From assembly GCF_041886205.1 (NCBI RefSeq), contig NZ_CP169029.1: a stretch of DNA of 64,000 nucleotides; one strand, written 5' to 3'. Below, piece by piece: positions 1 to 31,332 of this stretch. Made by a program: the position numbers and the translations under genes. This stretch comes from Escherichia coli (lineage in GTDB: Bacteria; Pseudomonadota; Gammaproteobacteria; Enterobacterales; Enterobacteriaceae). Every line of letters begins with the position of its first letter. The first letter of the stretch is position 1. The notes beneath the pieces are model-generated. The model ran no database searches. It saw only the letters and a list, made by a program, of their open reading frames with translations, and had not been told where the DNA came from.

Positions 1-3000
1 CTCTTCAGCCAGCATACCCTTCACCGAACAGACGACCGTACCCAGATCAACACCGGTTTGGGCTGGCGTCATTTCACCCCCAGCTGGATGTCAGGCATCA
101 ACCTGTTTTTTGACCACGACCTGAGCCGCTATCACTCCCGCGCGGGGCTTGGCGCAGAATACTGGCGTGATTATCTCAAGTTAAGCAGCAACGCTTATAT
201 CGGCCTGACCGGCTGGCGTAGCGCACCAGAATTGGATAATGACTTCGAAGCCCGCCCGGCCAACGGTTGGGATTTACGCGCGGAAGGCTGGTTACCTGCC
301 TGGCCACAACTGGGTGGAAAACTGGTCTATGAACAATACTACGGCGATGAAGTGGCGCTGTTTGACAAGAATGATCGCCAAAGTAATCCCCATGCTATTA
401 CCGCGGGCCTCAACTATACCCCCTTCCCGCTTCTGACTCTCAGTGCGGAACAGCGTCAGGGGAAACAAGGTGAAAATGACACACGTTTTGCCGTTGATCT
501 GACCTGGCAACCCAGCAGTTCAATGCAGAAACAGCTTAACCCGGACGAAGTGGCCGGACGGCGCAGTCTGGTCGGTAGTCGTTATGACCTGATTGATCGC
601 AACAACAACATCGTTCTGGAATACCGCAAGAAAGAGCTGATTCGCCTGAGTCTGCTGGATCCGGTGAAAGGGAAGTCTGGAGAAATAAAACCGCTGGTTT
701 CCTCGCTACAGACCAAATATGCCCTGAAAGGCTATAACATCGAAGCCGCTGCGCTGGAAGCTGCCGGAGGTAAAGTCAGCACTTCTGGAAAAGATATCAC
801 GGTCACGCTGCCAGGTTACCGCTTCACTAACACCCCAGAAACCGATAATACATGGTCGATAGACGTTACCGCCGAGGATGTAAAAGGTAACCTGTCACAT
901 CATGAACAAAGCATGGTAGTCATTCAGGCTCCGACATTAAGCCAGAAAGATTCTCTGTTATCCGTTAATCCGCTAACCGTGGCTGCAGATAAAAAATCGA
1001 CGACCACATTGACCGTTACTGCACACGATTCCGACGGAACCCCGGTGCCGGGGCTTGCGCTGCAAACCCGCAGTGAAGGCGTTCAGGACATCACCCTGTC
1101 TGACTGGACAGATAACGGTGATGGTAGTTACACACAGATGCTGACCGCCGGAACGACATCAGGTTCAGTAACACTGACGCCGCAAATTAACGGTGAGAGT
1201 GCGGTAAAAGAATCTATCGTCGTTAATATCGTCCCTGTTGTCTCATCCCGCGACCATTCATCAATAACAATTGATAACGTATCGTATTATGCCGGAGACG
1301 ACATCAAGGTTAGGGTGGAGCTGAAAGACGATAGCAATCAACCGGTTGCATATCAAAAAGAGGAATTGGTAAAAGCCGTTACTGTCGAAAACAGCAAACC
1401 TGGAGCCACGATTGTCTGGCACGAAGAGCTGCCGGGGGTTTATACCGCGAATTATCCGGCCCATAAGCAAGGGACAGCACTAAGGGCACAACTTAGCCTT
1501 CACAACTGGAATGCTCCACTGCAATCGCATATTTATAACATTGAGGCAAACCAGAATAAGGCTCGCGTCGCCACATTATCAGCGACGAATAATGACGTTT
1601 ACGCTGATAAAAAGACATTTAATACCCTCACTATCAACGTCACTGATGAGAGTGATAATCCCCTGACAAATCATCAGGTCACCTTTAAGAATGAAAAAGG
1701 AAGCGCGGAATTTGTCGAACCGCCGCAGCAAAATACGGATGCATATGGTGTTGCCACAATCAACATGGTAAGTCAGGTTGCGGAAGAAAATACGATTAGC
1801 GCCACGCTGCCAAATGGTTTCTCACAACGGATAATTGCGAAATTTGTTAGCGATTCGAGTACGCCAAAATTCAAACAACTGGTTGCCGATCCAGATACCA
1901 TTATTGCTGGCAACAGCCAGGGCAGCACTCTGACCGCCACCGTCACAGACTTTCATAACAACCCATTAAAAGATATGAAAGTGAATTTTGTGGCACCTGG
2001 TGGCTCGCAACTGGACAACACGACCGCCACAACAGACCAGTACGGTATTGTGCGGGTGCATCTGACCAGTTCAAAAGCTGGTAGCTATTCCGTAGATGCC
2101 TCGCTTGAGGCGGATAAAAATATTCACCAGTCGGTCACGATCACCGTGGTCCCAAACAGGGAACAATCGGTAATGACCTTGAATGCCGGGTCGGGCAGTG
2201 CGGTCGCTAACAATACAAATACCGTTACCCTGACTGCCAGTGTGAAAGATGTTTATGGACACCCATTGCCGGATGAGGATGTGAAATTTACCTTGCCAGC
2301 CTCCATGACCGGGAACTTCACGCTAAGTAGTGAAACCGCCCGCACCGATGCAAACGGCGATGCCATGGTCACATTGCGAGGCACAAAAGCGGGTGAGTTT
2401 ACAGTTACGGCGACGCTGACAAGAAATAATACCATTGCTCATCAGCAAGTTTCTTTTATTGGGGATACAAACAGTGCGCAGCTCCAGCCGCTGACTGCCT
2501 CATTAAATACCATTGTTGCGGGTAACAGTACGGGGAGTACCCTGACGGCAACGATCCTGGACGCTTACCAAAATCCGCTTAAAGACCAGCTGGTCACTTT
2601 CCAGAGTAACGATGTCACTCTAAGCGGAACAGAAGTCACCACCAATACGCTGGGTCAGGCGACGGTAACAATGACCAGCAATATTGCCGGACAACATAAC
2701 GTCGTGGTGAGCCGGAAAGCACAAGCCTCCGATAATAAAACGTTTAGTTTATCAGTGCTCCCGGATGAAAGTTCGGCGAAGGTAATAAGTATAACCGGAG
2801 CCGAAAAAACGATAACGGTTGGCGAAAACATCACGCTACGGATACTCGTCCAGGACGCGTTTAACAATGTAATAGCGGGTCAACGTGTCAGATTAAGTGC
2901 GCAGCCAACAGCTCACATTACGATAGGCGATACGGCTTACACCGATAATAACGGTTATGCGTACGTTCACCTTATTAGCACCCAGTCTGGGGTTTATCAG

Positions 3001-4578
3001 GTGACGGCAACGCTGGACAATAACAGTAGTAGTAAGGTTGACGTGAATGTGGCAAATGGCAAACTCGAGTTAACATCATCGAAGCCAGAAACCACGGTCC
3101 ATAACAGTGAGGGTATTACGCTTACCGCAACGGCGAGAAATGCGCGGGATGAATTGATGCCTGGGCAAATTATCACCTTTAGCGTAACGCCTGAAGGTGC
3201 AACGCTAAGCAATACAGGGGAAGTCCTTACTGACCAGTCTGGTCAGGCCAAAGTGACGCTGACCAGTGACAAAGTGAATGTCTATACCGTTACGGCCACA
3301 ATGGGCAAAGATGTTCCCGTTCAGAGCCAGGTAACGGTTGCGGTTAAGGCAGATGCTAAAACGGCACATGTTGTAAGCGTCGTGGCCTCTCCTGACACCA
3401 TAACCGCCGACGGCGTTGATAGCAGCACCGTCACGTCACGAGTAGAAGATGATTACGGATTCCCGGTTGAAGGTGTCGATGTTAGTTATGCCTTAGACAC
3501 CAAAGGTCGCCCGGTTGTTAATATTCCAACTACGCGTACCGATCAATCCGGGCAAGTCACGGCGACAATAACCAGTACATTGGCAGAAACCTTAACAGTC
3601 AATGTGCAAGTTCCTGGTACAGCCAACCAATCCGCAGCTATTACCTTGATTGCCGGCACGGCGGATGAAAGTAAGTCAATTTTGAAATCCGACGTTGGCA
3701 CTCTGATGGCTGACTACCAGCATAGCGCGAAACTTACGCTAACATTGCAAGACAAGTACGGTAACCCGATAGTGACGTCTGATCATCTGGAATTTGTCCA
3801 GTCAGGTCCCTTCGTGAACTTTCTCAAGTTGAGCGATATTGATTACAGCCAAAGAAATTATGGCGAGTACACCGTGACTGTCACTGGCGGAAAAGAGGGA
3901 ACAGCGACTCTCATTCCCATGCTGAACGGGGTTCATCAGGCAAACTTAAGCGTATCGCTGAATCTCATCCGCTCGATAAAAGAAATGTCCGGTCATGTCA
4001 CTGCAAACAACCATACCTTCTCCACGGCTAAATTCCCGAGCGAAGGTTTTGCAGGAGCGTATTACACACTCAACAATGATAACTTTGAAGCGGGTAAAAC
4101 CGTTGATGATTATATGTTTTCAAGTTCACAGAGTTGGGTGTCTGTCGATGCGTCAGGTAAGGTTTCTTTCACAAATATCGGCGATCAAACGTCAGTCACA
4201 ATAAGCGCTGTTCCCCGACAAGGAGGTACAACCTACCAGACCTTAATTAAGCTGAAAGGCTGGTGGGTGAATAATGGAAATCAAACCAATATCTGGCTAA
4301 CTGCCAATGCGCTCTGTCATGCGAAAAATGATGGATATACTCTTCCTGGCATCACACATTTGACGTCTGGCGAAAACAAACGCACGCAGGGATCGCTATA
4401 TGGTGAATGGGGGAACGTTGCAGCGTTTTCCAGTAATTCGCCATTTACACCAGGTGCTTACTGGACAAATGAATCTGATGATTACAATAGGCACTACTAT
4501 GTGCAGATGCTAACGGGTATGACCGGAAGCGACGCTGATTCCAGCCCCCAACTGACCGCCTGCCGTAAATCACTTTAA
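1..4578 (+). CDS. Inverse autotransporter adhesin (intimin/invasin family), 5-prime partial: end of beta-barrel, about 9-10 Big_1 Ig-like repeats, Cys-containing C-terminal domain
   Basis: Frame is open from base 1 (no stop before the listed TTG at 58). N-terminal stretch AEYWRDYLK...ERPANGWDLR...KLVYEQYYGDEVALF resembles the intimin/invasin barrel end; recurring about 100-aa units with motifs such as STLTATVTD..NPL..V.F; stop at 4576-4578. Confidence 0.8.
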   Translation, partial: LFSQHTLHRTDDRTQINTGLGWRHFTPSWMSGINLFFDHDLSRYHSRAGLGAEYWRDYLKLSSNAYIGLTGWRSAPELDNDFEARPANGWDLRAEGWLPAWPQLGGKLVYEQYYGDEVALFDKNDRQSNPHAITAGLNYTPFPLLTLSAEQRQGKQGENDTRFAVDLTWQPSSSMQKQLNPDEVAGRRSLVGSRYDLIDRNNNIVLEYRKKELIRLSLLDPVKGKSGEIKPLVSSLQTKYALKGYNIEAAALEAAGGKVSTSGKDITVTLPGYRFTNTPETDNTWSIDVTAEDVKGNLSHHEQSMVVIQAPTLSQKDSLLSVNPLTVAADKKSTTTLTVTAHDSDGTPVPGLALQTRSEGVQDITLSDWTDNGDGSYTQMLTAGTTSGSVTLTPQINGESAVKESIVVNIVPVVSSRDHSSITIDNVSYYAGDDIKVRVELKDDSNQPVAYQKEELVKAVTVENSKPGATIVWHEELPGVYTANYPAHKQGTALRAQLSLHNWNAPLQSHIYNIEANQNKARVATLSATNNDVYADKKTFNTLTINVTDESDNPLTNHQVTFKNEKGSAEFVEPPQQNTDAYGVATINMVSQVAEENTISATLPNGFSQRIIAKFVSDSSTPKFKQLVADPDTIIAGNSQGSTLTATVTDFHNNPLKDMKVNFVAPGGSQLDNTTATTDQYGIVRVHLTSSKAGSYSVDASLEADKNIHQSVTITVVPNREQSVMTLNAGSGSAVANNTNTVTLTASVKDVYGHPLPDEDVKFTLPASMTGNFTLSSETARTDANGDAMVTLRGTKAGEFTVTATLTRNNTIAHQQVSFIGDTNSAQLQPLTASLNTIVAGNSTGSTLTATILDAYQNPLKDQLVTFQSNDVTLSGTEVTTNTLGQATVTMTSNIAGQHNVVVSRKAQASDNKTFSLSVLPDESSAKVISITGAEKTITVGENITLRILVQDAFNNVIAGQRVRLSAQPTAHITIGDTAYTDNNGYAYVHLISTQSGVYQVTATLDNNSSSKVDVNVANGKLELTSSKPETTVHNSEGITLTATARNARDELMPGQIITFSVTPEGATLSNTGEVLTDQSGQAKVTLTSDKVNVYTVTATMGKDVPVQSQVTVAVKADAKTAHVVSVVASPDTITADGVDSSTVTSRVEDDYGFPVEGVDVSYALDTKGRPVVNIPTTRTDQSGQVTATITSTLAETLTVNVQVPGTANQSAAITLIAGTADESKSILKSDVGTLMADYQHSAKLTLTLQDKYGNPIVTSDHLEFVQSGPFVNFLKLSDIDYSQRNYGEYTVTVTGGKEGTATLIPMLNGVHQANLSVSLNLIRSIKEMSGHVTANNHTFSTAKFPSEGFAGAYYTLNNDNFEAGKTVDDYMFSSSQSWVSVDASGKVSFTNIGDQTSVTISAVPRQGGTTYQTLIKLKGWWVNNGNQTNIWLTANALCHAKNDGYTLPGITHLTSGENKRTQGSLYGEWGNVAAFSSNSPFTPGAYWTNESDDYNRHYYVQMLTGMTGSDADSSPQLTACRKSL

Positions 4579-4649
4579 TTTCTGCAGTTGTTATTAAAGG
4601 ATACCCTTGTGCGAGGGTATCCTTTCCGACTGATAACAAACGCTACATT

Positions 4650-4708
4650 GCCTAATGCGCTGCGCTTATCTGGCCTATATAATCCCTGCAATATATTGAA
4701 TTTATTGT
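4650..4708. repeat. REP-like palindromic element with conserved extension (second copy at about 40085-40142)
   Basis: gcgctgcgcttatctggcctat...cctgcaatatattgaatttattg closely matches gcgctacgcttatcaggcctac...cctgcaatttattgaatttgttg downstream of ridA. Confidence 0.6.
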
Positions 4709-5286
4709 TTTTGTGGCCCAGCCGACATGAACGGCCACTCAAGAAACTCAACAGCAACCGTTGATGTCAGCCAGACCCCGTTTTCCGCTTGCCAGAAAGG
4801 GATGCCTCGTTTCGCCATTTCCTGTGCTTTGACGGTTAAGATAACCGGCGATCCGTGTCTTGCTCCCACTTTGCGTGCCGTTGCTTCATCAGCAGAGAGA
4901 TGTACGTAATGACGCTCCCCTGCAATCAGCCCCTGTTTTTTTATCTCGTCAAGGAAACGGCTTGCCGTACCGTGGTAGAGAAACTGTGGCGGTGTTTTTT
5001 CGGCAAAGGAAATGGCGACCTGCGAAGTCGAATGCCCCTGAACCGCGCGGATGCACCTACCATCACTGGAATAACTAAAACGCTTTTTATCGCTGGTGGC
5101 AACCACAGTATCCAGCAATGCACGGGTTAACCGCTTGCCCGCTTTTTGGGCACAGAGTATAAGCTTATCGATATCCGCCCATCCTTCACGGTCAAGTACG
5201 ATACCAATCGCCTCCGGTTTGTGTCGGAGGACAAAACTTAAAAACTTGCTCGTATCCGCCAGCTCTTTTTCGTTGTACTTTGCCAT
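4702..5286 (-). CDS. kptA: RNA 2'-phosphotransferase KptA (Tpt1 family)
   Basis: Translation [28 protein letters not shown]...[16 protein letters not shown] matches the KptA/Tpt1 family; start chosen at internal Met of the 228-aa ORF. Confidence 0.85.
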
Positions 5287-5523
5287 CTCGTTTTCGTCCC
5301 TGGATTTTCTGTTTTTATTTACTGATGTCATTGTCACTTGGTTTATGAATTTTCTGCAACTCAATCCTGCGCAGAGCCTTTTCCACACAGCGTAATTTTT
5401 CCGCTATGCAAAAAACGCATAGCCAGAAACATACTTGCATTTTCCCCATACCCACATGGCTGATAAGGTTTTTCCGCTCCAGGAATTTTCCTGGCTCAAG
5501 CAACACACAAACACAAAAAAACA

Positions 5524-6219
5524 ATGGGGATTGTTATGACACAACAAGGGGATGCTGTAGCCGGGGAGCTGGCGACAGAAAAAGTGGGCATTAAAGGGTA
5601 TCTGGCTTTTTTTCTCACCATAATCTTTTTTTCCGGTGTTTTTTCCGGGACAGACAGTTGGTGGCGCGTTTTTGATTTTTCCGTTCTGAACGGATCGTTT
5701 GGGCAACTGCCTGGTGCGAATGGAGCCACCACCTCATTTCGCGGGGCGGGTGGCGCGGGGGCTAAAGATGGCTTTCTCTTTGCGCTGGAGCTGGCACCGT
5801 CAGTCATTCTCTCTCTGGGGATTATTTCAATTACCGATGGTCTTGGTGGATTACGCGCCGCGCAGCAGTTAATGACACCTGTGCTAAAACCGTTGTTGGG
5901 CATTCCAGGGATCTGCTCGCTGGCGCTGATCGCTAACCTGCAAAACACGGATGCCGCCGCCGGTATGACCAAAGAGCTGGCGCAGGAAGGTGAAATTACC
6001 GAACGCGATAAAGTGATTTTCGCCGCATATCAAACCAGCGGTAGCGCCATCATCACCAACTACTTCTCTTCCGGCGTCGCGGTGTTTGCCTTTCTGGGCA
6101 CGTCCGTAATCGTACCTTTAGCCGTCATCCTGGTGTTTAAATTTGTCGGAGCCAACATTTTGCGCGTCTGGCTTAACTTCGAAGAACGTCGCAACCCAAC
6201 GCAAGGAGCGCAAGCATGA
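5524..6219 (+). CDS. yjiH: Inner membrane protein YjiH (SpmA-like nucleoside-recognition-domain protein)
   Basis: Hydrophobic 231-aa ORF; position and order yjiH-yjiG-iadA as I recall for K-12; 4-bp overlap with the next gene. Confidence 0.75.
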   Translation: MGIVMTQQGDAVAGELATEKVGIKGYLAFFLTIIFFSGVFSGTDSWWRVFDFSVLNGSFGQLPGANGATTSFRGAGGAGAKDGFLFALELAPSVILSLGIISITDGLGGLRAAQQLMTPVLKPLLGIPGICSLALIANLQNTDAAAGMTKELAQEGEITERDKVIFAAYQTSGSAIITNYFSSGVAVFAFLGTSVIVPLAVILVFKFVGANILRVWLNFEERRNPTQGAQA

Positions 6220-6677
6220 CAACTCAGGTCCGCAAAAATGTCATGGATATGTTTATCGATGGTGCGCGCCGTGGCTTTACTATCGCCACGACCAACCTGC
6301 TGCCAAACGTGGTGATGGCGTTTGTCATCATTCAGGCGCTGAAAATTACCGGCCTGCTCGACTGGGTGGGGCATATCTGTGAACCCGTAATGGCGCTGTG
6401 GGGATTACCCGGTGAAGCGGCAACCGTCCTTTTAGCCGCATTAATGAGTATGGGCGGCGCAGTCGGTGTTGCCGCCAGTCTGGCGACCGCCGGCGCATTA
6501 ACCGGTCACGATGTCACCGTTTTACTGCCCGCGATGTATTTAATGGGCAACCCGGTGCAAAATGTCGGTCGCTGCCTGGGGACAGCCGAAGTGAATGCCA
6601 AATATTACCCGCATATCATTACGGTCTGCGTGATTAACGCATTGCTGTCGATCTGGGTTATGCAGCTTATTGTTTAA
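6216..6677 (+). CDS. yjiG: Inner membrane protein YjiG (SpmB-like)
   Basis: 153-aa membrane ORF translationally coupled to yjiH and followed by iadA. Confidence 0.75.
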   Translation: MTTQVRKNVMDMFIDGARRGFTIATTNLLPNVVMAFVIIQALKITGLLDWVGHICEPVMALWGLPGEAATVLLAALMSMGGAVGVAASLATAGALTGHDVTVLLPAMYLMGNPVQNVGRCLGTAEVNAKYYPHIITVCVINALLSIWVMQLIV

Positions 6678-6689
6678 CAAGGAGTTACC

Positions 6690-7862
6690 ATGATTGATTA
6701 TACCGCAGCCGGTTTTACCCTGCTGCAGGGAGCGCATTTGTATGCGCCGGAAGATCGGGGAATTTGCGATGTCCTCGTCGCTAACGGCAAAATTATCGCC
6801 GTTGCCAGCAATATCCCTTCTGACATTGTACCGGACTGCACGGTTGTCGATCTCAGCGGGCAGATCCTCTGTCCTGGTTTTATTGATCAACACGTCCATT
6901 TGATTGGTGGTGGCGGTGAAGCAGGTCCCACGACGCGCACGCCAGAAGTGGCGCTAAGTCGCCTGACGGAAGCGGGCGTCACGTCAGTGGTTGGTCTGCT
7001 GGGCACCGACTCTATCTCTCGCCACCCGGAATCCCTGCTCGCCAAGACCCGTGCGCTCAATGAAGAAGGCATCAGCGCCTGGATGCTGACCGGCGCTTAT
7101 CATGTCCCTTCCCGCACCATTACAGGTTCCGTGGAAAAAGACGTGGCGATTATCGATCGTGTGATTGGCGTGAAATGCGCCATCTCTGATCACCGTTCTG
7201 CCGCACCGGACGTTTATCACCTGGCTAATATGGCGGCGGAATCCCGCGTTGGCGGTTTGCTCGGCGGTAAACCTGGCGTCACCGTGTTCCACATGGGCGA
7301 CAGCAAAAAGGCGTTACAGCCTGTCTATGACCTGCTGGAAAACTGCGATGTGCCGATCAGCAAGTTGCTGCCGACCCACGTTAACCGCAACGTTCCGTTG
7401 TTTGAGCAGGCGCTGGAGTTCGCGCGCAAAGGCGGCACTATCGATATCACCAGCAGCATTGACGAACCGGTCGCCCCTGCCGAAGGTATTGCGCGCGCCG
7501 TTCAGGCGGGTATTCCGCTGGCACGCGTCACCCTCAGCTCCGACGGCAACGGTAGCCAGCCGTTCTTCGATGACGAAGGGAATTTAACCCATATCGGTGT
7601 TGCCGGTTTTGAAACGTTGCTGGAAACCGTGCAGGTGCTGGTCAAAGACTATGATTTCAGTATCAGCGATGCCCTGCGCCCGCTCACCAGTAGCGTAGCC
7701 GGTTTCCTTAACCTGACCGGGAAAGGCGAAATTCTGCCAGGCAATGATGCTGACTTGCTGGTCATGACGCCAGAACTGCGCATTGAGCAGGTATACGCTC
7801 GCGGCAAACTGATGGTCAAAGACGGCAAAGCCTGCGTGAAAGGAACGTTTGAAACGGCTTAA
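6690..7862 (+). CDS. iadA: Isoaspartyl dipeptidase (amidohydrolase superfamily)
   Basis: 390 aa; metal-binding HxH motif near N-terminus (FIDQHVHLIGGGGE); RBS aggag upstream; K-12 synteny. Confidence 0.85.
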   Translation: MIDYTAAGFTLLQGAHLYAPEDRGICDVLVANGKIIAVASNIPSDIVPDCTVVDLSGQILCPGFIDQHVHLIGGGGEAGPTTRTPEVALSRLTEAGVTSVVGLLGTDSISRHPESLLAKTRALNEEGISAWMLTGAYHVPSRTITGSVEKDVAIIDRVIGVKCAISDHRSAAPDVYHLANMAAESRVGGLLGGKPGVTVFHMGDSKKALQPVYDLLENCDVPISKLLPTHVNRNVPLFEQALEFARKGGTIDITSSIDEPVAPAEGIARAVQAGIPLARVTLSSDGNGSQPFFDDEGNLTHIGVAGFETLLETVQVLVKDYDFSISDALRPLTSSVAGFLNLTGKGEILPGNDADLLVMTPELRIEQVYARGKLMVKDGKACVKGTFETA

Positions 7863-7926
7863 ACGGTTGTCAGCCGCCCGAATGGACGTAGAATGCCCGC
7901 AAGGGCGGCTGACAGAGTAAAACGTA

Positions 7927-8763
7927 ATGGATGACTGTGGTGCGATTTTGCATAATATTGAAACCAAATGGCTTTATGATTTTCTGACCCTGGAAAAATG
8001 CCGCAATTTTTCCCAGGCGGCAGTCAGTCGCAACGTCTCGCAACCGGCATTCAGCCGCCGCATCCGTGCGCTGGAACAGGCGATTGGTGTTGAATTGTTT
8101 AACCGCCAGGTAACGCCGCTGCAACTCTCAGAACAAGGGAAAATCTTCCATTCGCAGATCCGCCATCTGTTGCAACAGTTAGAGAGCAATCTGGCAGAGC
8201 TGCGTGGCGGCAGCGATTACGCGCAACGAAAAATCAAGATAGCCGCTGCACACTCTCTTTCCCTCGGGCTGTTACCGTCCATTATCAGCCAGATGCCGCC
8301 GCTCTTTACCTGGGCAATTGAAGCTATTGATGTCGATGAAGCGGTCGATAAACTGCGTGAAGGGCAAAGTGACTGTATTTTTTCCTTTCACGACGAAGAT
8401 TTGCTGGAAGCGCCGTTTGACCACATTCGCTTATTTGAATCTCAATTGTTCCCTGTCTGCGCCAGTGACGAACACGGAGAAGCACTTTTTAACCTCGCGC
8501 AGCCACACTTTCCGTTACTGAATTACAGCCGCAACTCCTACATGGGGCGATTGATTAATCGCACCCTGACGCGCCACAGTGAGTTAAGTTTCAGCACCTT
8601 TTTTGTCTCTTCGATGAGCGAGCTTTTAAAGCAGGTTGCCCTCGACGGCTGTGGGATTGCCTGGCTGCCGGAGTACGCCATCCAACAAGAAATTCGCAGC
8701 GGGAAGCTCGTTGTACTGAATCGGGACGAACTGGTGATCCCGATTCTGGCCTATGCATACTGA
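7927..8763 (+). CDS. hypT: LysR-family regulator HypT (YjiE), apparently truncated by an in-frame TGA; 24 further sense codons continue to a second stop at 8836-8838
   Basis: N-terminal HTH typical of LysR regulators; ORF ends ...ILAYAY then TGA, followed in frame by [24 protein letters not shown] and a stop. Confidence 0.75.
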   Translation: MDDCGAILHNIETKWLYDFLTLEKCRNFSQAAVSRNVSQPAFSRRIRALEQAIGVELFNRQVTPLQLSEQGKIFHSQIRHLLQQLESNLAELRGGSDYAQRKIKIAAAHSLSLGLLPSIISQMPPLFTWAIEAIDVDEAVDKLREGQSDCIFSFHDEDLLEAPFDHIRLFESQLFPVCASDEHGEALFNLAQPHFPLLNYSRNSYMGRLINRTLTRHSELSFSTFFVSSMSELLKQVALDGCGIAWLPEYAIQQEIRSGKLVVLNRDELVIPILAYAY

Positions 8764-8830
8764 ATGAATACCCGCATGAATCCAGTTGCCGAACGCTTCT
8801 GGCGTGAACTGCGCGAGCTGGAGATTGTAC

Positions 8831-9223
8831 TTAGCTGACATTCTCCAGCGTCGCACTACGCCAACCGCCATTATCCCAGACCAGATCAAACGTTAGCGGT
8901 TCATCGTCGTGGTACAGCATTATCTCAAGGCTGATCGCCAGCGTGTGACTGTACGCTTCTTTCAGATTGACCTGCAACGCCGCAATCCGTGGCTCATGAA
9001 ATAACAGTGCAGAACGCAGCTGACGGCAATACCAGCTCTGGAGATGTTTGTCGCTCTGGTTATGCACTTGCCACTCGGGCATGCCTGAAACAAGTAATGA
9101 CGGTAATGCCGAAAGAGGAGAATTAAAAAGAGTGAGGAGATCGCTGCATACCGATTTACGCAGCAATGACGTTTTATTGCCTGAAATTTTAGGTAAAACA
9201 GCCTGAAGTGATTGGCGCATCAT
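8831..9223 (-). CDS. iraD: Anti-adapter protein IraD (YjiD)
   Basis: About 130-aa ORF convergent with hypT; sequence [11 protein letters not shown]... as recalled for IraD; K-12 synteny. Confidence 0.75.
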
Positions 9224-9894
9224 TTTGCGCACTCCTGACGTTTAGCAACATATGCGGCTTGCCCTGAACACCGGGCACCACTGTATTGATGCTCATTTTC
9301 CATAGCCATTCCCTTTTGTTCATTACATCCATGTCAGTCTGAGACAGGCCTGAATCCTGTCAGCAAAGTATAAAACCTTACTTGCCTATGAATATCTACT
9401 GACTTTTCAGGAAAAAAGTCATGATTTGATAAAAATCATCAAACTCAAAAAAAAACCGCTAGTATATTCTGAATATTCCGAATAGTTACGTAGATGAAAA
9501 TACTTGTCACCGCCGCTACTTAATTCCGGTTGGAAATTATTTATTTCCGCATAATCATCTATGTATTATTTGAAACAATTAGTTTGTAAATAATATAAAT
9601 TGATAACATATCAAATACATCAAAAATACCATTCACAGGCATTATTAATATAGACCTCAATATAGCAACATCAAATTCCAATTAGTAATAAGATATGCTT
9701 TTAAATTGCATGCAAATAATTTTAAATGAGCGTTTTTTGATACTTTAGAGTGTTTCCTACCATTTAATATCACTGTGTAGAGTTGATATCACTACAACAG
9801 AAACATGCATGTCATTTGTTTACTTCTCTTTTACTACAGAAAAATTTATCTATTTTTCTAAACATCAGTGAAATACTCATAAAAGGTAACTATT

Positions 9895-10725
9895 ATGTCT
9901 ATGCCATTAAGCAATGCCGCTAATAACCAATTCTATATAAATAATCACTTCCTTCATCATCCAAAAGTCGACAATGAGTTAACACGTAAATATGAACGTG
10001 CACGCCTGGATACGGAAAATATCTATCTTCTGCCTCTTACTCGTGGCAATAACCATAATTACGATGGAAAAAGCGTTGTCGAAATTAGAAAACTTGATAT
10101 TAGTAAAGAGTCCTGGCCATTTAATTATGTGACAGAAACATGCAGAGAATCCGATGGTATTACAACAACAGGTCGTATGCTCTATCGAAACTTGCGAATT
10201 ACCTCAGCTTTAGACGAAATATATGGTGGTATATGTAAAAAGGCGCATGCTGCCACAGAGTTAGCAGAAGGATTACGGCTAAATTTATTTATGAAGAGCC
10301 CTTTCGATCCTGTTGAGGACTATACAGTTCATGAAATAACATTAGGCCCTGGTTGCAATGTTCCTGGTTATGCCGGAACCACGATAGGATATATTTCAAC
10401 CCTTCCAGCTTCTCAGGCAAAAAGATGGACCAATGAGCAGCCAAGGATTGATATCTATATTGATCAGATAATGACGGTAACAGGGGTAGCAAATTCTTCC
10501 GGATTCGCCCTTGCCGTATTACTTAATGCTAATATTGAGTTGGGTAATGACCCAATAATTGGTATAGAAGCCTATCCCGGTACCGCGGAGATCCATGCAA
10601 AAATGGGATATAAAGTTATCCCGGGTGATGAAAATGCACCACTCAAACGTATGACTCTGCAACCGTCATCTCTTCCAGAACTGTTTGAATTAAAAAATGG
10701 TGAATGGAATTATATTGGTAAATAA
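9895..10725 (+). CDS. yjiC: Uncharacterized protein YjiC, low-GC gene
   Basis: 276-aa ORF with AT-rich codon usage, preceded by a 660-bp very AT-rich intergenic region; position matches K-12 yjiC. Confidence 0.7.
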   Translation: MSMPLSNAANNQFYINNHFLHHPKVDNELTRKYERARLDTENIYLLPLTRGNNHNYDGKSVVEIRKLDISKESWPFNYVTETCRESDGITTTGRMLYRNLRITSALDEIYGGICKKAHAATELAEGLRLNLFMKSPFDPVEDYTVHEITLGPGCNVPGYAGTTIGYISTLPASQAKRWTNEQPRIDIYIDQIMTVTGVANSSGFALAVLLNANIELGNDPIIGIEAYPGTAEIHAKMGYKVIPGDENAPLKRMTLQPSSLPELFELKNGEWNYIGK

Positions 10726-10865
10726 CTACCAGGAAGAATGAGTACTAACATTCAGGTTATACAGATAGCTAAACAATACCCTGCAATTTACAAAGTAATA
10801 CTCATTGCGACTTCTTAATTTAAGAAAGCGCAAGGAACGTTTACCCTTGCGCTTATTATAATAAG

Positions 10866-11639
10866 TCAGGCGTCGACTTTATCCAGCGGCCATGAATCAA
10901 ACAGATAGCCATCAAAATAAATATCGTCAACGTTCGAGAATTCCAGCAGACGTTGCTTAACGTTTTCCAGATGCTGCCACATTGCCAGCTTCGCCGCTCG
11001 GGCATCTTTTTTGATTAACGCGGCGAGGATCTGTTTGTGATCGCCCAACCACTCTTTGCGATACAGGCTGTCATCCAGATGGCTGTGCAACTGGATCCAC
11101 ATTGGATTGTTTTCCCGCCACTGCCAGGACTGACGGAACAGCTCCACCAGCATGCTGTTATGCGTTGCTTCGGCAATAGCGAGATGGAACTGCATGTCAC
11201 CGCTTTCGCTGCTGCCCGGCGCACTGGAAGCCAGTTCACGCTCTTCCAGTTGCAATGCCTGACGCATTTTGACGATATCTTCGCGGGTAGCCTGCAGGGC
11301 GGCAAACTCGGCGATGTTGCTCTCAAGAAGCTGTCGCGCCTGCAACAGCTCAAAAGGACCCGCATCATTGCAAACGTTGGCATCCGGACTGTCTGTGTTG
11401 TGGCTGCCTGAGCTATCAAGAACATAGATACCGGCACCCCGGCGCACTTCCACCAGCCCTTTGATCTCCAGCATGATCAGCGCTTCACGTACCACCGTCC
11501 GCGTGACATCAAGCATTTCTGCAATTTCACGCTCCGGCGGCAGCCGTTCGCCAGGATTGTACGGCGTCTTTATGATCAGATCGCGGATCATCGCCCCGAC
11601 TTCCTGGTAAGGTCTTTGCGCAGAGGTGGCAGATTTCAT
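10866..11639 (-). CDS. uxuR: GntR/FadR-family transcriptional repressor UxuR
   Basis: 257 aa; N-terminal GntR-type HTH (RLPPEREIAEMLDVTRTVVREAL); adjacent to uxuAB. Confidence 0.9.
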   Translation of the reverse strand: MKSATSAQRPYQEVGAMIRDLIIKTPYNPGERLPPEREIAEMLDVTRTVVREALIMLEIKGLVEVRRGAGIYVLDSSGSHNTDSPDANVCNDAGPFELLQARQLLESNIAEFAALQATREDIVKMRQALQLEERELASSAPGSSESGDMQFHLAIAEATHNSMLVELFRQSWQWRENNPMWIQLHSHLDDSLYRKEWLGDHKQILAALIKKDARAAKLAMWQHLENVKQRLLEFSNVDDIYFDGYLFDSWPLDKVDA

Positions 11640-11674
11640 GGTGTTGTGTCCGTTAGGTGCGGTTAATCAAATTT

Positions 11675-11708
11675 TGCCGGATGCGGCGTGAACGCCTTAT
11701 CCGGCCTA
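11675..11708. repeat. REP (repetitive extragenic palindromic) element
   Basis: gccggatgcggcgtgaacgccttatccggcctac, the canonical E. coli REP sequence, between uxuR and uxuB. Confidence 0.8.
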
Positions 11709-11852
11709 CAACGGGCAATTTTACGGCCCCCGTTAATCTCAAACTATACCATTAGCACTGGAAGTTGGCACGTACAGGTGGGCAAAAAAACGAAAACTGG
11801 TCAACCAAATATCAGTTTGATTGACCAGTAAGTCTGTAGGGTAATCAGTTAG

Positions 11853-13313
11853 TTACAGCGCAGCCACACACTCGCGCGCACCGCGTTCGCACAGCTGCTG
11901 ATATGCCGCCGTCACCGCGCCAACAAAGTCCGCATTTTGCGGCAGATCATCGGCAAAAATACCGCTCAGGCCCAGCAACGCTTTCACGCGGTCTGCGCCC
12001 TGATTCTGCGCGTTGATCTTCTGGAACTCCGCCAGCATCGGGTCAACTACGTCAATGGCATTACCCTGCTCATCCACGCCCTGGGTGTAGCGCATCCAGC
12101 CAGCCACGCCCAGCGCCAGGTGACGCCAGCTGCCGCCGTTTTGCAGGTGCAGACGCACCGGATCCAGCAGACGCTGCGGTAACTTCTGGCTGCCGTCCAT
12201 CGCAATCTGCCAGGTACGGTGACGCAGAGACGGGTTGCTGAAACGCTCGATCAGCAGCGTCGCATAGGCGTTCAGGTCCGTACCTTCCGGCATCGACAGC
12301 GTTGGCGCTTGTTCCTGCATCATCAGGGCAAAGGCCGCTTTGCGATAATCCGGGTTAGTCATGGTGTCGGCAATAGTTTCATAGCCGCCGAGGTAACCGA
12401 GGTATGCCAGGAAAGAGTGGCTGCCGTTCAGCATACGCAGCTTCATCATTTCGAACGGCACAACGTCTGCAACGAACTGTGCGCCCACTTTATCCCAGTC
12501 CGGGCGACCATTAACGAAGTTATCTTCAATCACCCACTGACGGAACGGTTCGCAGGCAATGGCGCACGGGTCGTAAACACCCAGCTGGTCAGCAATTTCC
12601 TGTAAGGTTTCTGGCGTCGCCGCCGGAACGATGCGGTCAACCATGGTGCACGGGAAGGTGACGTTCTCTTCAATCCATGCCGCCAGCTGCGGATCGCGTG
12701 CCTGAGCCAGCCCAAGAACGGCAACCTTCGCCACATGACCGTTTTCTCGCACGTTGTCGCAGGACATCACCGTAAACGCTTTCAACCTTTTTTCACGACG
12801 CAGGCGCAACGCTTCTACGATGTAACCAATCGCGGACTTCGGCGCAGTCGGGTTTTCCAGATCGTGCTTGATCAGCGGGTTATTGAGATCCAGTTGACCG
12901 CTTGCCGCATCAGCGCAGTAGCCTTTTTCCGTGACCGTTAGAGAGACAATCGCCGTTTGCGGACGCGCCATCGCGTTGAGAATACCTTCGCAGCCATCGA
13001 TTTCCGGATGCAGCGCTTCTTTCATTGAACCGATAATTTTCAGCTCGGTGCTTTCTGCGCCTTTTTCCGCCACGGTGTACAGCAGTTGCTGTTTTTTCAG
13101 GTTTTCGATCAGCACGCGGTCGTTGCCTGGCATCAGGTTAACTTCGCAGATACCCCAGTCGCTGTCGGTGCTTTCCAGCAGGTGATGGGTATACAGCGCC
13201 TGGTGCGCGCGGTGAAACGCCCCGCAACCGAGATGCACAATGCGTGATTCCAGACGAGAATGATCCCATGACGGGCGGGCAACCGGCAGATTGCTGTCAA
13301 CAATAGTAGTCAT
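11853..13313 (-). CDS. uxuB: D-mannonate oxidoreductase (fructuronate reductase)
   Basis: 486 aa, mannitol-dehydrogenase-family protein with N-terminal Rossmann motif (VHLGCGAFHRAH); uxuAB operon context. Confidence 0.9.
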   Translation of the reverse strand: MTTIVDSNLPVARPSWDHSRLESRIVHLGCGAFHRAHQALYTHHLLESTDSDWGICEVNLMPGNDRVLIENLKKQQLLYTVAEKGAESTELKIIGSMKEALHPEIDGCEGILNAMARPQTAIVSLTVTEKGYCADAASGQLDLNNPLIKHDLENPTAPKSAIGYIVEALRLRREKRLKAFTVMSCDNVRENGHVAKVAVLGLAQARDPQLAAWIEENVTFPCTMVDRIVPAATPETLQEIADQLGVYDPCAIACEPFRQWVIEDNFVNGRPDWDKVGAQFVADVVPFEMMKLRMLNGSHSFLAYLGYLGGYETIADTMTNPDYRKAAFALMMQEQAPTLSMPEGTDLNAYATLLIERFSNPSLRHRTWQIAMDGSQKLPQRLLDPVRLHLQNGGSWRHLALGVAGWMRYTQGVDEQGNAIDVVDPMLAEFQKINAQNQGADRVKALLGLSGIFADDLPQNADFVGAVTAAYQQLCERGARECVAAL

Positions 13314-13393
13314 CGTAAACTCCAGAATCCGTCTTCAGAGAGTGACGGCAAGGAAGAAGGAACCGGCACGGCGCGCAGCCATGCCGGTGGATA

Positions 13394-14578
13394 TTAACGG
13401 CTAAAGAAAGCGCGCTGGATCGCCAGTTCGACACCGCGAACTTCGGCCAGGCCTTTCAGACGACCAATTGCGGAGTAACCTGGGTTGGTTTTCTTCTTCA
13501 GGTCGTCCAGCATCTGATGACCGTGGTCCGGACGCATCGGGATCAGGTCTTCTTTGCCTTCCGCTTTACGACGGTGTTCTTCTTCAACAATCGCTTTCAC
13601 CACTTCGTACATATCAACGTCACCGTTCAGGTGCGCCGCTTCGTGGAAGGTTTTGGGGTTATCTTCACGCATGGTGGAGCGCAGATGGGTGAAGTAAATG
13701 CGCGGACCAAACTGCTTGATCATATCAACCAGATCGTTGTCAGCACGCACGCCGTAGGAACCGGTGCACATGGTGAAACCGTTCGCCATGCTGTTTACGG
13801 TATCAACCATCCACTGCATATCTTCAATGGTGGAAACAATGCGCGGCAGGCCGAGGATCGGGCGCGGCGGATCGTCCGGGTGAACAGCCATACGCACGCC
13901 AACTTCTTCGGCAACCGGAATAATCGCTTTCAGGAAGACCGCAAAGTTTTCGCGCAGTTTGGCTTTGTCGATATCTTTGTACAGCTCCAGGTGTTTACGG
14001 AACTGGTCGAGGGTGTAGCCTTCTTCCGCGCCCGGAAGACCAGCAATGATGTTACGGGTCAGACGCGCTTTGTCTTCGTCGCTCATAGTGGCGAAGCGAA
14101 CAGCAGCCTGAGCAATTTCTTCTTCGGCGTAATCCGCTTCCGCGCCTGGACGTTTCAGGATATGCATTTCGAATGCAGCGAATTCGATCTGGTCGAAGCG
14201 CAGCGCTTTGGAGCCGTCTGGCAGCACGTATTCGAGGTCAGTACGGGTCCAGTCGAGCACCGGCATGAAGTTGTAGCACACGGTGCGAATGCCGCACTGC
14301 GCCAGGTTGCGCAGAGTCTGCTGATAGTTAGCGATCCACTGCTCATAGTTGCCAGTGTGGGTTTTGATATCTTCGTGAATTGGTACGCTTTCTACGACAG
14401 ACCACACCAGGCCTGCGTCTTCAACGATCGCCTTGCGTTTGAGGATCTCTTCTACGGACCATACTTCGCCGTTCGGGATATGGTGCAGCGCGGTAACCAC
14501 GCCAGTTGCGCCCGCCTGACGGACATCAGCTAAAGAAACCGGATCGTTTGGGCCGTACCAGCGCCAGGTCTGTTCCAT
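13394..14578 (-). CDS. uxuA: Mannonate dehydratase
   Basis: Translation from [23 protein letters not shown]... (394 aa) matches UxuA; start chosen at internal Met of the 406-aa ORF. Confidence 0.9.
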
Positions 14579-14740
14579 GATTTTTCCTCTTTCACATAGT
14601 GGGTTCCACAGCAAAGAGACGCGGAACCCTGGAGTTGTTTAGGTATCCGGATGAACAACCAGACCGCAGCCGTGGCGTTGCATCGGATGAGATGGCGTAT
14701 AAGTTCTACCTTTTGGTAAGACATGTCAACCCGAATTCTG

Positions 14741-14864
14741 AAATTGGTTAACCACATCACAAGAAATCAACTCTATTGCTGGTTGATGCAAATGACAACA
14801 AAGGAGAAGCGGCGGTTAGTAATCGGGGGATGTGACATTCATCGCAATAATGGTTGACCAATTT
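14741..14864. promoter_or_regulatory. uxuAB control region with two UxuR/ExuR-operator-like palindromes
   Basis: aaattggttaaccacat (14741-14757) and tggttgaccaattt (14851-14864), near-palindromes around TGGTTAACCA, upstream of uxuA. Confidence 0.55.
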
Positions 14865-14972
14865 ACATAACGTGTCGCCCAAAATAACAATGGATTAACC
14901 TACTCCCCCATTGCATAAGTTGTGACCGACACAACAAAACTGATGTTGTTGCAAAGATTGCTATTTAGTTTT

Positions 14973-14987
14973 GGTATAAAAGGTATA
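14973..14987. promoter_or_regulatory. NanR-operator-like GGTATA direct repeats upstream of nanM
   Basis: ggtataaaaggtata about 50 bp upstream of the nanM start; NanR is known to bind GGTATA repeats. Confidence 0.45.
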
Positions 14988-15036
14988 CAGGCACATGGTG
15001 CGACATTTGAATTCCAGCGATCAGGAGTAATTCACA

Positions 15037-16143
15037 ATGAATAAAACAATAACGGCGCTTGCTATCATGATGGCTTCATTTGCCGCAAACGCGTCTGTAT
15101 TACCGGAAACTCCTGTGCCATTTAAAAGTGGTACCGGAGCAATTGATAACGACACTGTCTACATTGGTTTAGGTAGCACAGGTACGGCATGGTACAAGCT
15201 GGATACACAGGCCAAAGATAAAAAATGGACAGCGTTAGCTGCATTCCCTGGCGGACCAAGAGATCAAGCAACCTCGGCATTTATTGATGGCAATCTGTAT
15301 GTGTTTGGCGGCATTGGCAAAAACAGCGAGGGCTTGACTCAGGTATTTAATGACGTACACAAATACAACCCCAAAACCAATAGTTGGGTTAAATTGATGT
15401 CGCACGCACCGATGGGCATGGCGGGTCATGTAACTTTTGTACACAACGGCAAGGCTTATGTTACTGGCGGTGTTAACCAGAATATCTTCAATGGCTATTT
15501 TGAAGATCTCAACGAGGCTGGAAAAGATTCAACCGCTGTAGATAAAATCAACGCTCACTATTTTGACAAAAAAGCAGAAGATTATTTCTTCAATAAGTTT
15601 CTGTTGTCTTTTGATCCCTCAACACAGCAATGGAGTTACGCTGGCGAATCCCCCTGGTACGGAACGGCTGGTGCGGCGGTTGTGAATAAAGGTGATAAAG
15701 CCTGGCTTATTAATGGCGAAGCCAAACCAGGATTGCGAACGGATGCCGTATTTGAACTTGATTTCACCGGTAATAATTTAAAATGGAATAAGCTTGCTCC
15801 CGTCTCATCACCAGATGGCGTCGCTGGCGGTTTTGCGGGGATAAGCAATGATTCTCTTATATTTGCCGGAGGGGCCGGATTCAAAGGTTCACGAGAAAAT
15901 TACCAGAACGGTAAGAACTATGCGCATGAAGGCCTGAAAAAATCATATAGCGCTGATGTTCATCTTTGGCATAACGGGAAATGGGATAAATCGGGCGAAT
16001 TGTCGCAAGGTCGGGCCTACGGAGTATCATTGCCCTGGAATAATAGTTTATTAATTATTGGCGGTGAAACTGCAGGCGGCAAAGCGGTGACGGATTCAGT
16101 TTTGATCTCTGTGAAGGATAATAAAGTCACAGTACAAAACTAA
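15037..16143 (+). CDS. nanM: N-acetylneuraminate epimerase (Kelch-repeat sialic acid mutarotase), signal peptide present
   Basis: 368 aa with N-terminal signal peptide (MNKTITALAIMMASFAANA) and repeated Kelch-like GG motifs; RBS aggag. Confidence 0.85.
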   Translation: MNKTITALAIMMASFAANASVLPETPVPFKSGTGAIDNDTVYIGLGSTGTAWYKLDTQAKDKKWTALAAFPGGPRDQATSAFIDGNLYVFGGIGKNSEGLTQVFNDVHKYNPKTNSWVKLMSHAPMGMAGHVTFVHNGKAYVTGGVNQNIFNGYFEDLNEAGKDSTAVDKINAHYFDKKAEDYFFNKFLLSFDPSTQQWSYAGESPWYGTAGAAVVNKGDKAWLINGEAKPGLRTDAVFELDFTGNNLKWNKLAPVSSPDGVAGGFAGISNDSLIFAGGAGFKGSRENYQNGKNYAHEGLKKSYSADVHLWHNGKWDKSGELSQGRAYGVSLPWNNSLLIIGGETAGGKAVTDSVLISVKDNKVTVQN

Positions 16144-16207
16144 CGCTTCAGGGCCCCAGTAAAGGGGCCCTGCTATCAATTTATCATATCAATTACGCGA
16201 AAATTAT

Positions 16208-17188
16208 ATGGACGCAATAATATCGCCCGATTATTACTATGTTCTTACCGTTGCTGGTCAGTCTAATGCCATGGCGTATGGCGAAGGACTGCCATTACCG
16301 GACAGGGAAGATGCGCCTCATCCCAGAATTAAACAATTAGCAAGATTTGCGCATACGCATCCCGGAGGCCCGTCATGTCACTTTAACGACATTATTCCAC
16401 TGACTCACTGCCCACACGATGTTCAGGATATGCAGGGTTATCACCATCCTCTGGCAACGAATCATCAAACACAGTACGGCACCGTTGGCCAGGCACTGCA
16501 TATTGCACGGAAATTACTGCCCTTCATTCCTGATAATGCAGGGGTTCTCATCGTTCCATGTTGTCGTGGCGGCTCGGCTTTTATCGCAGGCAGCGAAGGG
16601 ACATATTCAGAACGGCACGGAGCCAGCCATGATGCTTGTCGTTGGGGAACGGATACTCCGCTATACCAGGATTTAGTCAGCAGAACGCGAGCCGCACTGG
16701 CAAAAAATCCGCAGAACAAATTCCTCGGCGTATGCTGGATGCAAGGCGAATTTGACTTAATGACCTGTGACTACTCGTCACACCCTCAACACTTTAATCA
16801 TATGGTTGAAGCCTTTCGTAGGGATCTAAAACAATACCATTCTCAGCTTAATAAAATTACTGACGCGCCGTGGTTTTGCGGCGATACCACCTGGTACTGG
16901 AAAGAAAATTTCCCTCATGCGTATGAAGCTATTTATGGCAATTATCAAAATAATGTTTTAGCTAATATTATTTTCGTCGACTTCCAGCAACAAGGTGAAA
17001 GAGGACTGACGAACGCGCCTGATGAAGACCCGGACGATTTAATCATGGGATATTACGGTTCAGCGTACCGGTCACCGGAGAACTGGACGACGGCACTGCG
17101 AAGCAGTCATTTCAGCGCGGCAGCCCGTCGGGGGATTATTTCTGACAGGTTTGTAGAAGCAATTTTGCAGTTTTGGCGCGAAAGGTGA
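16208..17188 (+). CDS. nanS: 9-O-acetyl-N-acetylneuraminate esterase (SGNH/DUF303 family)
   Basis: 326 aa beginning ...YVLTVAGQSNAMAYGEG (GQSN catalytic-serine motif); directly downstream of nanM. Confidence 0.8.
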   Translation: MDAIISPDYYYVLTVAGQSNAMAYGEGLPLPDREDAPHPRIKQLARFAHTHPGGPSCHFNDIIPLTHCPHDVQDMQGYHHPLATNHQTQYGTVGQALHIARKLLPFIPDNAGVLIVPCCRGGSAFIAGSEGTYSERHGASHDACRWGTDTPLYQDLVSRTRAALAKNPQNKFLGVCWMQGEFDLMTCDYSSHPQHFNHMVEAFRRDLKQYHSQLNKITDAPWFCGDTTWYWKENFPHAYEAIYGNYQNNVLANIIFVDFQQQGERGLTNAPDEDPDDLIMGYYGSAYRSPENWTTALRSSHFSAAARRGIISDRFVEAILQFWRER

Positions 17189-17195
17189 GCGTTCA

Positions 17196-17846
17196 TTAAT
17201 TTGATTTATTCGCATCCATTAGCGCTTTTAACTGCTCCGGCGTAAACGGTGGTTTGCGTCGGTGCAGCATCGCATGGCAATTAGGGCACACAGGAAGCAA
17301 ATCATTAACTGGATCCAGCTGGTAATCCTCTTTAATGGCTGAAAGCGGCACCAGGTGATGCACATGGATAAAGCCTTCAGCGATATCACCATAGATCTTC
17401 ACCAGATCAACGCCGCATACGTTGCATTGGCATCCATGATGTTCGACCGCTTTATCTCGGGCCTTTTTATCGCGTTCATAGCGGTTTACTGTCACCTTTA
17501 TCGCCGCACCTTCAACGTAGGTCCCCTGCGACGGCAGCTCATCCGGGAACAGAACGTCGGCTATGGGAGCCGCAGCGGCTTTATCCTGATGAATATGAAA
17601 TCCCTGCTCTATGAGTAGCTTGACACATTTAGATTTTATTCCGCCGGTGAAATCCGCAGGGGTAAATTGCGTCCCCGTCATCAATGTCGCTGCGATGCCA
17701 GCAATCGCCTTCGAGGGGTAACGTCGGCCATGATATTCAATTTCATACAACCGTGCAGGCTGGAACTGATGAGTTTCTCCCGCATCCCATAAATGAATAG
17801 CTTCGATGATATACCGCCGCGGAAGATGATCGGGGAGTTTATTCAT
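17196..17846 (-). CDS. HNH endonuclease, McrA-like (candidate modification-dependent restriction/defence nuclease)
   Basis: 216 aa; C-terminal HNH/zinc-finger signature CQCNVCG...HVHHLVPLS...NDLLPVCPNCH; N-terminal roughly 120-aa domain of unknown type; convergent with nanS, next to IS1. Confidence 0.7.
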   Translation of the reverse strand: MNKLPDHLPRRYIIEAIHLWDAGETHQFQPARLYEIEYHGRRYPSKAIAGIAATLMTGTQFTPADFTGGIKSKCVKLLIEQGFHIHQDKAAAAPIADVLFPDELPSQGTYVEGAAIKVTVNRYERDKKARDKAVEHHGCQCNVCGVDLVKIYGDIAEGFIHVHHLVPLSAIKEDYQLDPVNDLLPVCPNCHAMLHRRKPPFTPEQLKALMDANKSN

Positions 17847-17992
17847 AGAGAATGTCCTTATACGTTCTCAGAACAAGCAGCAAAAAAACAAATGAGATCA
17901 AAGTAATATATCTTCACTTGCAGGCTTGAACAGCAGAAAATTTGCGAGCATGATCGCAATTATTTCACTGCCAGGGAGGTAATGACTCCAAC

Positions 17993-18496
17993 TTATTGAT
18001 AGTGTTTTATGTTCAGATAATGCCCGATGACTTTGTCATGCAGCTCCACCGATTTTGAGAACGACAGCGACTTCCGTCCCAGCCGTGCCAGGTGCTGTCT
18101 CAGATTCAGGTTATGCCGCTCAATTCGCTGCGTATATCGCTTGCTGATTACGTGCAGCTTTCCCTTCAGGCGGGATTCATACAGCGGCCAGCCATCCGTC
18201 ATCCATATCACCACGTCAAAGGGTGACAGCAGGCTCATAAGACGCCCCAGCGTCGCCATAGTGCGTTCACCGAATACGTGCGCAACAACCGTCTTCCGGA
18301 GCCTGTCATACGCGTAAAACAGCCAGCGCTGGCGCGATTTAGCCCCGACATAGCCCCACTGTTCGTCCATTTCCGCGCAGACGATGACGTCACTGCCCGG
18401 CTGTATGCGCGAGGTTACCGACTGCGGCCTGAGTTTTTTAAATGGCGGAAAATCGTGTTGAGGCCAACGCCCATAATGCGGGCGGTTGCCCGGCAT
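17993..18496 (-). CDS. insB: IS1 transposase InsB reading frame (expressed as InsAB' by -1 frameshift)
   Basis: 167-aa [19 protein letters not shown]...DGWPLYE... overlapping the insA 3-prime end in the -1 frame, as in IS1. Confidence 0.9.
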
Positions 18497-18690
18497 CCAA
18501 CGCCATTCATGGCCATATCAATGATTTTCTGGTGCGTACCGGGTTGAGAAGCGGTGTAAGTGAACTGCAGTTGCCATGTTTTACGGCAGTGAGAGCAGAG
18601 ATAGCGCTGATGTCCGGCGGTGCTTTTGCCGTTACGCACCACCCCGTCAGTAGCTGAACAGGAGGGACAGCTGATAGAAACAGAAGCCAC
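18415..18690 (-). CDS. insA: IS1 protein InsA
   Basis: 91-aa [46 protein letters not shown]..., the IS1 InsA zinc-finger protein. Confidence 0.95.
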
Positions 18691-18745
18691 TGGAGCACCT
18701 CAAAAACACCATCATACACTAAATCAGTAAGTTGGCAGCATCACC

Positions 18746-19281: not shown

Positions 19282-19366
19282 TGGTGCCGAAGGCCGGACT
19301 CGAACCGGCACGTATTTCTACGGTTGATTTTGAATCAACTGCGTCTACCGATTTCGCCACTTCGGC
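19282..19366 (-). tRNA. leuX: tRNA-Leu (CAA), leuX
   Basis: Reverse complement reads GCCGAAGTGGCGAAATCGGTAGACGCAGTTGATTCAAAATCAACCGTAGAAATACGTGCCGGTTCGAGTCCGGCCTTCGGCACCA with CAA anticodon loop and encoded CCA end. Confidence 0.95.
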
Positions 19367-29910: not shown

Positions 29911-29939
29911 AAGGCCGGAGCATGCTCCGGCCTTTTTTA
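29911..29939. terminator. Bidirectional rho-independent terminator between valS and yjgN
   Basis: aaggccggagcatgctccggcctt perfect hairpin followed by tttttt, preceded by A-rich stretch. Confidence 0.8.
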
Positions 29940-29943
29940 TCTC

Positions 29944-31140: not shown

Positions 31141-31332
31141 AAAAATTCCCTGAATTAAAAAATCCATTGATATAATTTATAGATACAGACAGTAAAATGT
31201 TCTGCCACGTTACAATACTCTTATCAGTAATAGGCTGGCAAAAACTTTATTACTTTATAAGTCGCTTGCGCACGTAAGAAGAGAGTGGTATTAAACATAT
31301 GTATAATTACTTTATTTTTATTGGGTTAAACT

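Follow-up and report, generated by a model that had tools for sequence, protein, structure and literature searches.

The window analysed here, a stretch of 64,000 nucleotides from the Escherichia coli contig NZ_CP169029.1, carries a shortened allele of the regulator gene hypT (yjiE/qseD) in which the codon for Arg279 has become a stop codon. This R279* allele is real and is inherited within a clone, and the explanation that we consider probable for the observations as a whole is a recent, inherited nonsense allele that is either null or strongly hypomorphic. The truncation is of an ordinary, lineage-specific kind in a regulator that is already known; it is not a recoding signal, no new mechanism is indicated by it, and the most fitting label for the gene is a truncated hypT allele, or probable hypT pseudogene. 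Bleach acts through HOCl, with which neutrophils also kill, and in the hypochlorite response of HypT the genes for methionine, cysteine and sulfur metabolism are induced, while iron uptake is repressed. Carriers of the allele, including a food isolate of serotype O157:H29 and sequence type ST515, probably lack a working HypT response, and their chlorine tolerance could differ. The main value of the observation lies in annotation and strain phenotype, i.e. chlorine stress in ST515-like strains of phylogroup B1, and the allele also represents a natural deletion of the C-terminal helix that can be used to probe the role of this helix in HypT oligomerisation.

Reading frame, remnant and genomic surroundings

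According to the list of open reading frames (ORFs) and their translations, the truncated hypT coding sequence occupies positions 7927-8763 on the plus strand, beginning with the ATG at 7927 and comprising 278 codons, of which the last encodes Tyr278, followed by a premature opal TGA at 8761-8763, which is where an earlier note on this DNA had placed the stop. The TGA directly abuts an ATG at 8764, and 24 in-frame sense codons follow before a second TGA at 8836-8838. An open frame of this length is not evidence in itself, because its chance probability is (61/64)^24 = 0.32, or about one in three; it is homology that decides that this remnant (8764-8838, plus strand, codons 280-303 and the ancestral stop) is the true HypT C-terminus, as the earlier note had supposed. 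All 24 of its residues are identical to residues 280-303 of K-12 HypT, and the remnant, which encodes a loop and the C-terminal helix with Trp292, matches positions 280-303 of the NCBIfam HypT equivalog NF007488 (E 2.4e-8).

The 278-residue ORF in turn covers positions 1-278 of this 303-position model with 640.1 bits (E 4.6e-193) against a cutoff of 301 bits. Pfam HTH_1 and LysR_substrate are recorded for the identical 278-aa product, and Cys4, Met123, Cys150, Met206 and Met230 are all kept in the truncated ORF, together with the HTH and the linker helix. By score, synteny and sensor residues, the gene of the window is thus a member of the HypT orthologue group, but one in which no single polypeptide covers the model from end to end. 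Reinitiation at the ATG at 8764 was considered and rejected, since the sequence upstream of it (CTATGCATACTGAATG) contains nothing resembling a Shine-Dalgarno sequence; the juxtaposition of TGA and ATG is incidental, because the ancestral protein has the dipeptide Arg279-Met280 at this place.

The order and spacing of iadA, hypT and iraD are the same as in E. coli S43, ET201 and K-12. On the plus strand, the ORF at 6690-7862 corresponds to iadA as annotated at the equivalent place in these three genomes, and the convergent iraD, encoding an anti-adaptor protein, is intact at 8831-9223 on the minus strand (NF010726 IraD, 295 bits, positions 1-130 of 130). Its TAA lies at 8831-8833, and in the collinear locus of ET201 the annotation gives iraD the same coordinates. 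The ancestral hypT stop lies 8 nt inside iraD, an 8-nt overlap that is annotated in S43, ET201 and K-12, and the premature stop instead leaves a gap of 67 nt between the two coding regions; the loss of the 3' coding overlap, which the earlier note had described, is thereby borne out against the S43 annotation. A scan for terminators around the hypT/iraD junction found none.

Upstream of hypT, there is a sigma-70-like promoter match at 7867-7894 on the plus strand, with 10 of 12 hexamer matches. As a consensus match only, it is not evidence of function, and the upstream region of hypT appears to be without visible degradation. An 11-bp perfect inverted repeat (GTCAGCCGCCC...GGGCGGCTGAC) is located at 7869-7915, after the stop of iadA and before the start of hypT, where it overlaps the promoter-like site; it could be a terminator-like hairpin of iadA lacking a T-run, or a binding site for a regulator.

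Across the wider window, the closest complete genome is that of ET201, which is collinear with positions 1-17977 at 99.6%. An IS1 copy of 768 bp is found at 17978-18745, after which the window resumes from 18746, just upstream of tRNA-Leu(CAA) (19282-19366), and a block of about 10 kb that in ET201 contains an HNH endonuclease, an AbiE-like toxin pseudogene and a type I restriction-modification system (hsdM/S/R) is absent from the window. Judging from this arrangement, the immigration-control region seems to have been deleted or replaced here in association with IS1. In ET201, nanM and nanS come directly after uxuA, and positions of about 14579-15037 of the window lie between uxuA and nanM. 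In K-12, the two genes are separated by gntP, the complete fim operon for type 1 fimbriae and nanC, and many other genomes matching positions 1-25000 of the window have fimD and gntP within the matched span; the lineage of the window appears to be without the fim cluster at the uxuA-nanM site. A further segment of about 1.4 kb (29938-31383) has no counterpart in ET201, where the interval annotates a YjgN family protein, and its flanks align to ET201 at >99% on both sides.

Origin and inheritance of the stop codon

Positions 7927-8838 were compared by megablast with 5,426 complete E. coli genomes, and the gene was found in 5,392 of them. None of these 5,392 genomes matches the hypT of the window at 100%, and six are one base away. 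In E. coli S43, the best match among the complete genomes, hypT is annotated as 303 aa, and over 912 nt the sole difference is at position 8761, where the window has T and S43 has C, so that CGA (Arg279) becomes TGA; the nucleotide sequence of the remnant is the same in the window and in S43. An 80-nt probe with the stop at its centre found T at 8761 in none of the 3,329 complete genomes that it matched. The probe reached 3,329 of the 5,426 genomes, leaving about 2,060 with more divergent local sequence outside, and for these the absence of the TGA rests on the lack of any 100% full-gene match, such that divergent backgrounds with a TGA may still exist.

HypT of K-12 MG1655 (b4327) is likewise 303 aa long; its gene reads CGG at codon 279 and differs from that of the window at five bases, one of which gives Q274L (CAG to CTG), while two fall in codon 279 and two are synonymous changes within the remnant. 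Arg279 is encoded by CGA in the lineage of the window and in many others and by CGG in K-12, and the CGA predisposed codon 279 to the loss, because one transition makes CGA a stop codon, whereas C>T on CGG gives Trp. The lineage first had the synonymous CGA variant and then underwent the C>T change to TGA. Leu274 (position 8747 of the window, in the last beta-strand) is common to the six closest complete-genome alleles, which are of the S43 type, and position 274 is Gln in the HypT of K-12, O157:H7 TR01 and Salmonella.

The earlier note had proposed a recent nonsense mutation removing about 25 residues from the end of the effector/oligomerisation domain of a protein of about 303 aa, and had suggested an alignment with reference hypT as a check. 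The full length is correct according to K-12, S43 and NF007488, and the sequences of K-12, S43, ET201, O157:H7 TR01 and Salmonella all reach about residue 303, compared with 278 aa in the window. The mutation itself is a single C>T from an intact 303-aa allele, with a remnant that has not changed further and a lost segment that is conserved family-wide; there is one disabling change relative to an otherwise identical intact allele and the downstream frame is undecayed, as is characteristic of a recent nonsense allele. That the remnant has not decayed is due to the youth of the mutation. Window and S43 differ by 4 mismatches in 3.9 kb, i.e. by ~0.1%, and at this divergence about 0.07 substitutions are expected in the 72-nt remnant, where none is observed relative to S43; the intact frame is therefore uninformative on selection acting on the remnant.

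The same intact frame, in register downstream of the stop, is also what would be seen if the UGA were decoded by programmed readthrough or selenocysteine insertion and full-length HypT were still the main product. The earlier note had mentioned readthrough as an alternative, but we consider it very improbable. The youth of the mutation, with zero changes in the remnant relative to S43, already accounts for the intact frame, and UGA is not conserved at codon 279, where comparable genomes have Arg, as do 89 of 102 homologues in the corresponding alignment column. The RNA 3' of the UGA folds no better than its shuffles (8755-8835, MFE -17.2 kcal/mol versus a shuffle mean of -17.8, z = 0.18) and shows no SECIS-like structure, an Rfam scan of 8500-9500 at E <= 10 returned only noise (best E 0.88, for an unrelated snoRNA model), and when a suppressor tRNA was sought in the window, the sole tRNA was tRNA-Leu(CAA) at 19282-19366. 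With this z score, no Rfam family and the TGA in 0 of 3,329 genomes, readthrough as a programmed event is left unsupported. Low-level near-cognate readthrough of UGA is general in E. coli and would yield traces of full-length HypT.

A one-base difference, in an allele that none of the complete RefSeq E. coli genomes has, could also stem from faulty sequencing or assembly of the window, a reading to which we give next to no credence. The exact 278-aa protein has been deposited as EKI47470.1 (E. coli N1) and GDH14212.1, and look-ups of the exact protein found it on 85 contigs (up to 472 kb; 107 index blocks) from NCBI, ENA and Logan assemblies. Three independent contigs, from an NCBI assembly, an ENA metagenome assembly and a Logan run assembly, read GCATACTGAATG with the TGA and have the gene neighbourhood of the window, each with 1-2 private SNPs relative to the window per 6.8 kb. 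Error was rejected on the basis of these look-ups and contigs: three assemblies with distinct private SNPs, together with the deposited protein, mean that a young clone carries the allele. E. coli N1 is a food isolate of serotype O157:H29, ST515 and phylogroup B1 (PMC5039186). We infer that the allele is hitchhiking or neutral in this B1 clone, and since it persists in a clone that is often sampled, any harm that it does in that niche is at least not severe. A literature search found no paper on the hypT R279* allele.

The missing C-terminus and its probable consequences

The restored 303-aa sequence was searched against 1.84 billion representative proteins, and an alignment was built from the restored HypT and 101 near-full-length homologues with 27-81% identity (n = 102). 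All 102 sequences extend past column 279, which is partly a result of selection, the homologues having been chosen as near-full-length and reaching the C-terminus. Among the non-fragment representatives in the top 150, none is shorter than 287 aa, and those with a local alignment that ends earlier still have at least 296 aa. Only four columns of the alignment are invariant, and the deleted segment contains one of them, Trp292.

The AlphaFold2 model of the restored HypT, computed from this alignment, is a confident one (mean pLDDT 94.4) in which residues 271-280 form a long strand and residues 286-297 a helix, and the TM score of its regulatory domain to solved Salmonella HypT regulatory domains is 0.93-0.95. 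Seen on this model, the truncated HypT ends at the tip of beta8, without Arg279, the end of beta8 and the whole C-terminal helix. Of the LTTR fold, HTH_1 and LysR_substrate are present, and the closing helix 286-297 falls after the stop together with the invariant Trp292. In Salmonella HypT, the regulatory domain (RD) comprises residues 100-302, and beta8 belongs to both of the RD beta-sheets that form the RD-RD dimer interface (PMC6397515).

We propose that with the recent and vertically inherited change of Arg279 from CGA to TGA, translation would halt after Tyr278, and the product would retain the DNA-binding domain, the linker helix and most of the regulatory domain with Met123, Met206, Met230 and Cys4. 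Without helix 286-297, this protein would be misfolded, unstable or unable to oligomerise correctly, and the allele would abolish the HypT hypochlorite response or strongly reduce it. The helix and Arg279 are conserved among LysR-type relatives down to about 30% identity, and misfolding, instability or mis-oligomerisation is therefore the most likely fate of the truncated HypT. A precedent comes from Shewanella oneidensis OxyR, in which complementation is lost when a truncation at residue 283, 286 or 289 takes away the last helix (alpha10) but withstands cuts at 292 or 295, and in which the C-terminal helix mediates the assembly of tetramers into higher oligomers (PMC8787470). Judged from conservation and this precedent, the 278-aa HypT has probably lost its function or is strongly hypomorphic.

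It is conceivable, though unlikely, that the truncated HypT still works, with mildly reduced activity or with an altered behaviour such as the loss of the inactive dodecamer in which the protein is stored. Met123, Met206, Met230 and Cys4 are kept, as are the HTH and the linker helix, and the clone that maintains the allele has been recorded on 85 contigs. Altered oligomerisation would also fit the role of the OxyR C-terminal helix in building higher oligomers (PMC8787470), as the storage form reported for E. coli HypT is an inactive dodecamer, which yields active tetramers on dissociation, with Met123, Met206, Met230 and Cys4 as the HOCl-sensing or regulatory residues of the protein (review PMC7464077). 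However, the invariance of Trp292 and the near-invariance of Arg279 (n = 102) suggest a role in core folding and not a dispensable appendage, the OxyR truncations that lack the equivalent helix failed in complementation, and in a clone as young as this one (1-2 SNPs per 6.8 kb) a neutral pseudogene persists without selection. A version of the idea in which loss of the helix blocks dodecamer storage, thereby giving a permanently activation-competent HypT or one of altered specificity that is positively selected in the ST515-like B1 clone, seems to us quite improbable. The reading that we prefer remains the loss, or near loss, of the HypT response.

Comparison with other forms of HypT and with OxyR

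Other disruptions of the gene have been described or can be found in databases. QseD, which is the same protein as HypT, is mentioned as truncated in EHEC O157:H7 (review PMC5053249). In the one O157:H7 genome that was examined, TR01, hypT is an intact ORF of 303 codons (306-1217 of the locus extract), for which reason the EHEC truncated QseD was dropped as a precedent. It would be a natural truncated form of the same gene, but the EHEC QseD truncation of Habdas et al. (2010) is said to affect the N-terminal HTH and not the C-terminus, in contrast to the C-terminal loss in the window. The 'short' QseD isoform of the literature may stem from an earlier annotation or from variation between strains. 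Several proteins in the databases match HypT at 95-99% identity over no more than a part of its length and diverge beyond it, for example one of 301 aa that matches residues 1-210 and one of 249 aa that matches residues 1-173. These look like frameshifted or chimeric alleles or assembly errors, and such cases hint that disrupted hypT is not rare in public assemblies.

OxyR is a paralogous LTTR with a different sensing chemistry, and its C-terminal cuts were engineered; it is a lead for HypT and not a test. A closer relative is HypT of Salmonella Typhimurium, for which a full-length structure (5YDW) is available and which shares about 81% identity over residues 1-301. The crystallised Salmonella protein keeps the conserved C-terminal AYAYRMNTRM..VAE.FWR.LR, and the regulatory domain has also been solved in 5YDO, 5YDV, 5YER and 5YEZ; the solved proteins are full length, whereas the allele of the window would end within beta8 or at its end. 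The closest of the known systems is HypT of K-12 (YjiE/QseD, b4327), a hypochlorite-specific LysR-type regulator encoded at the same locus, with the same synteny and the same domains. Over residues 1-278, the two proteins are identical except for Q274L, and they differ in that the K-12 protein continues to 303 aa, whereas that of the window stops at 278 aa, without the C-terminal helix.
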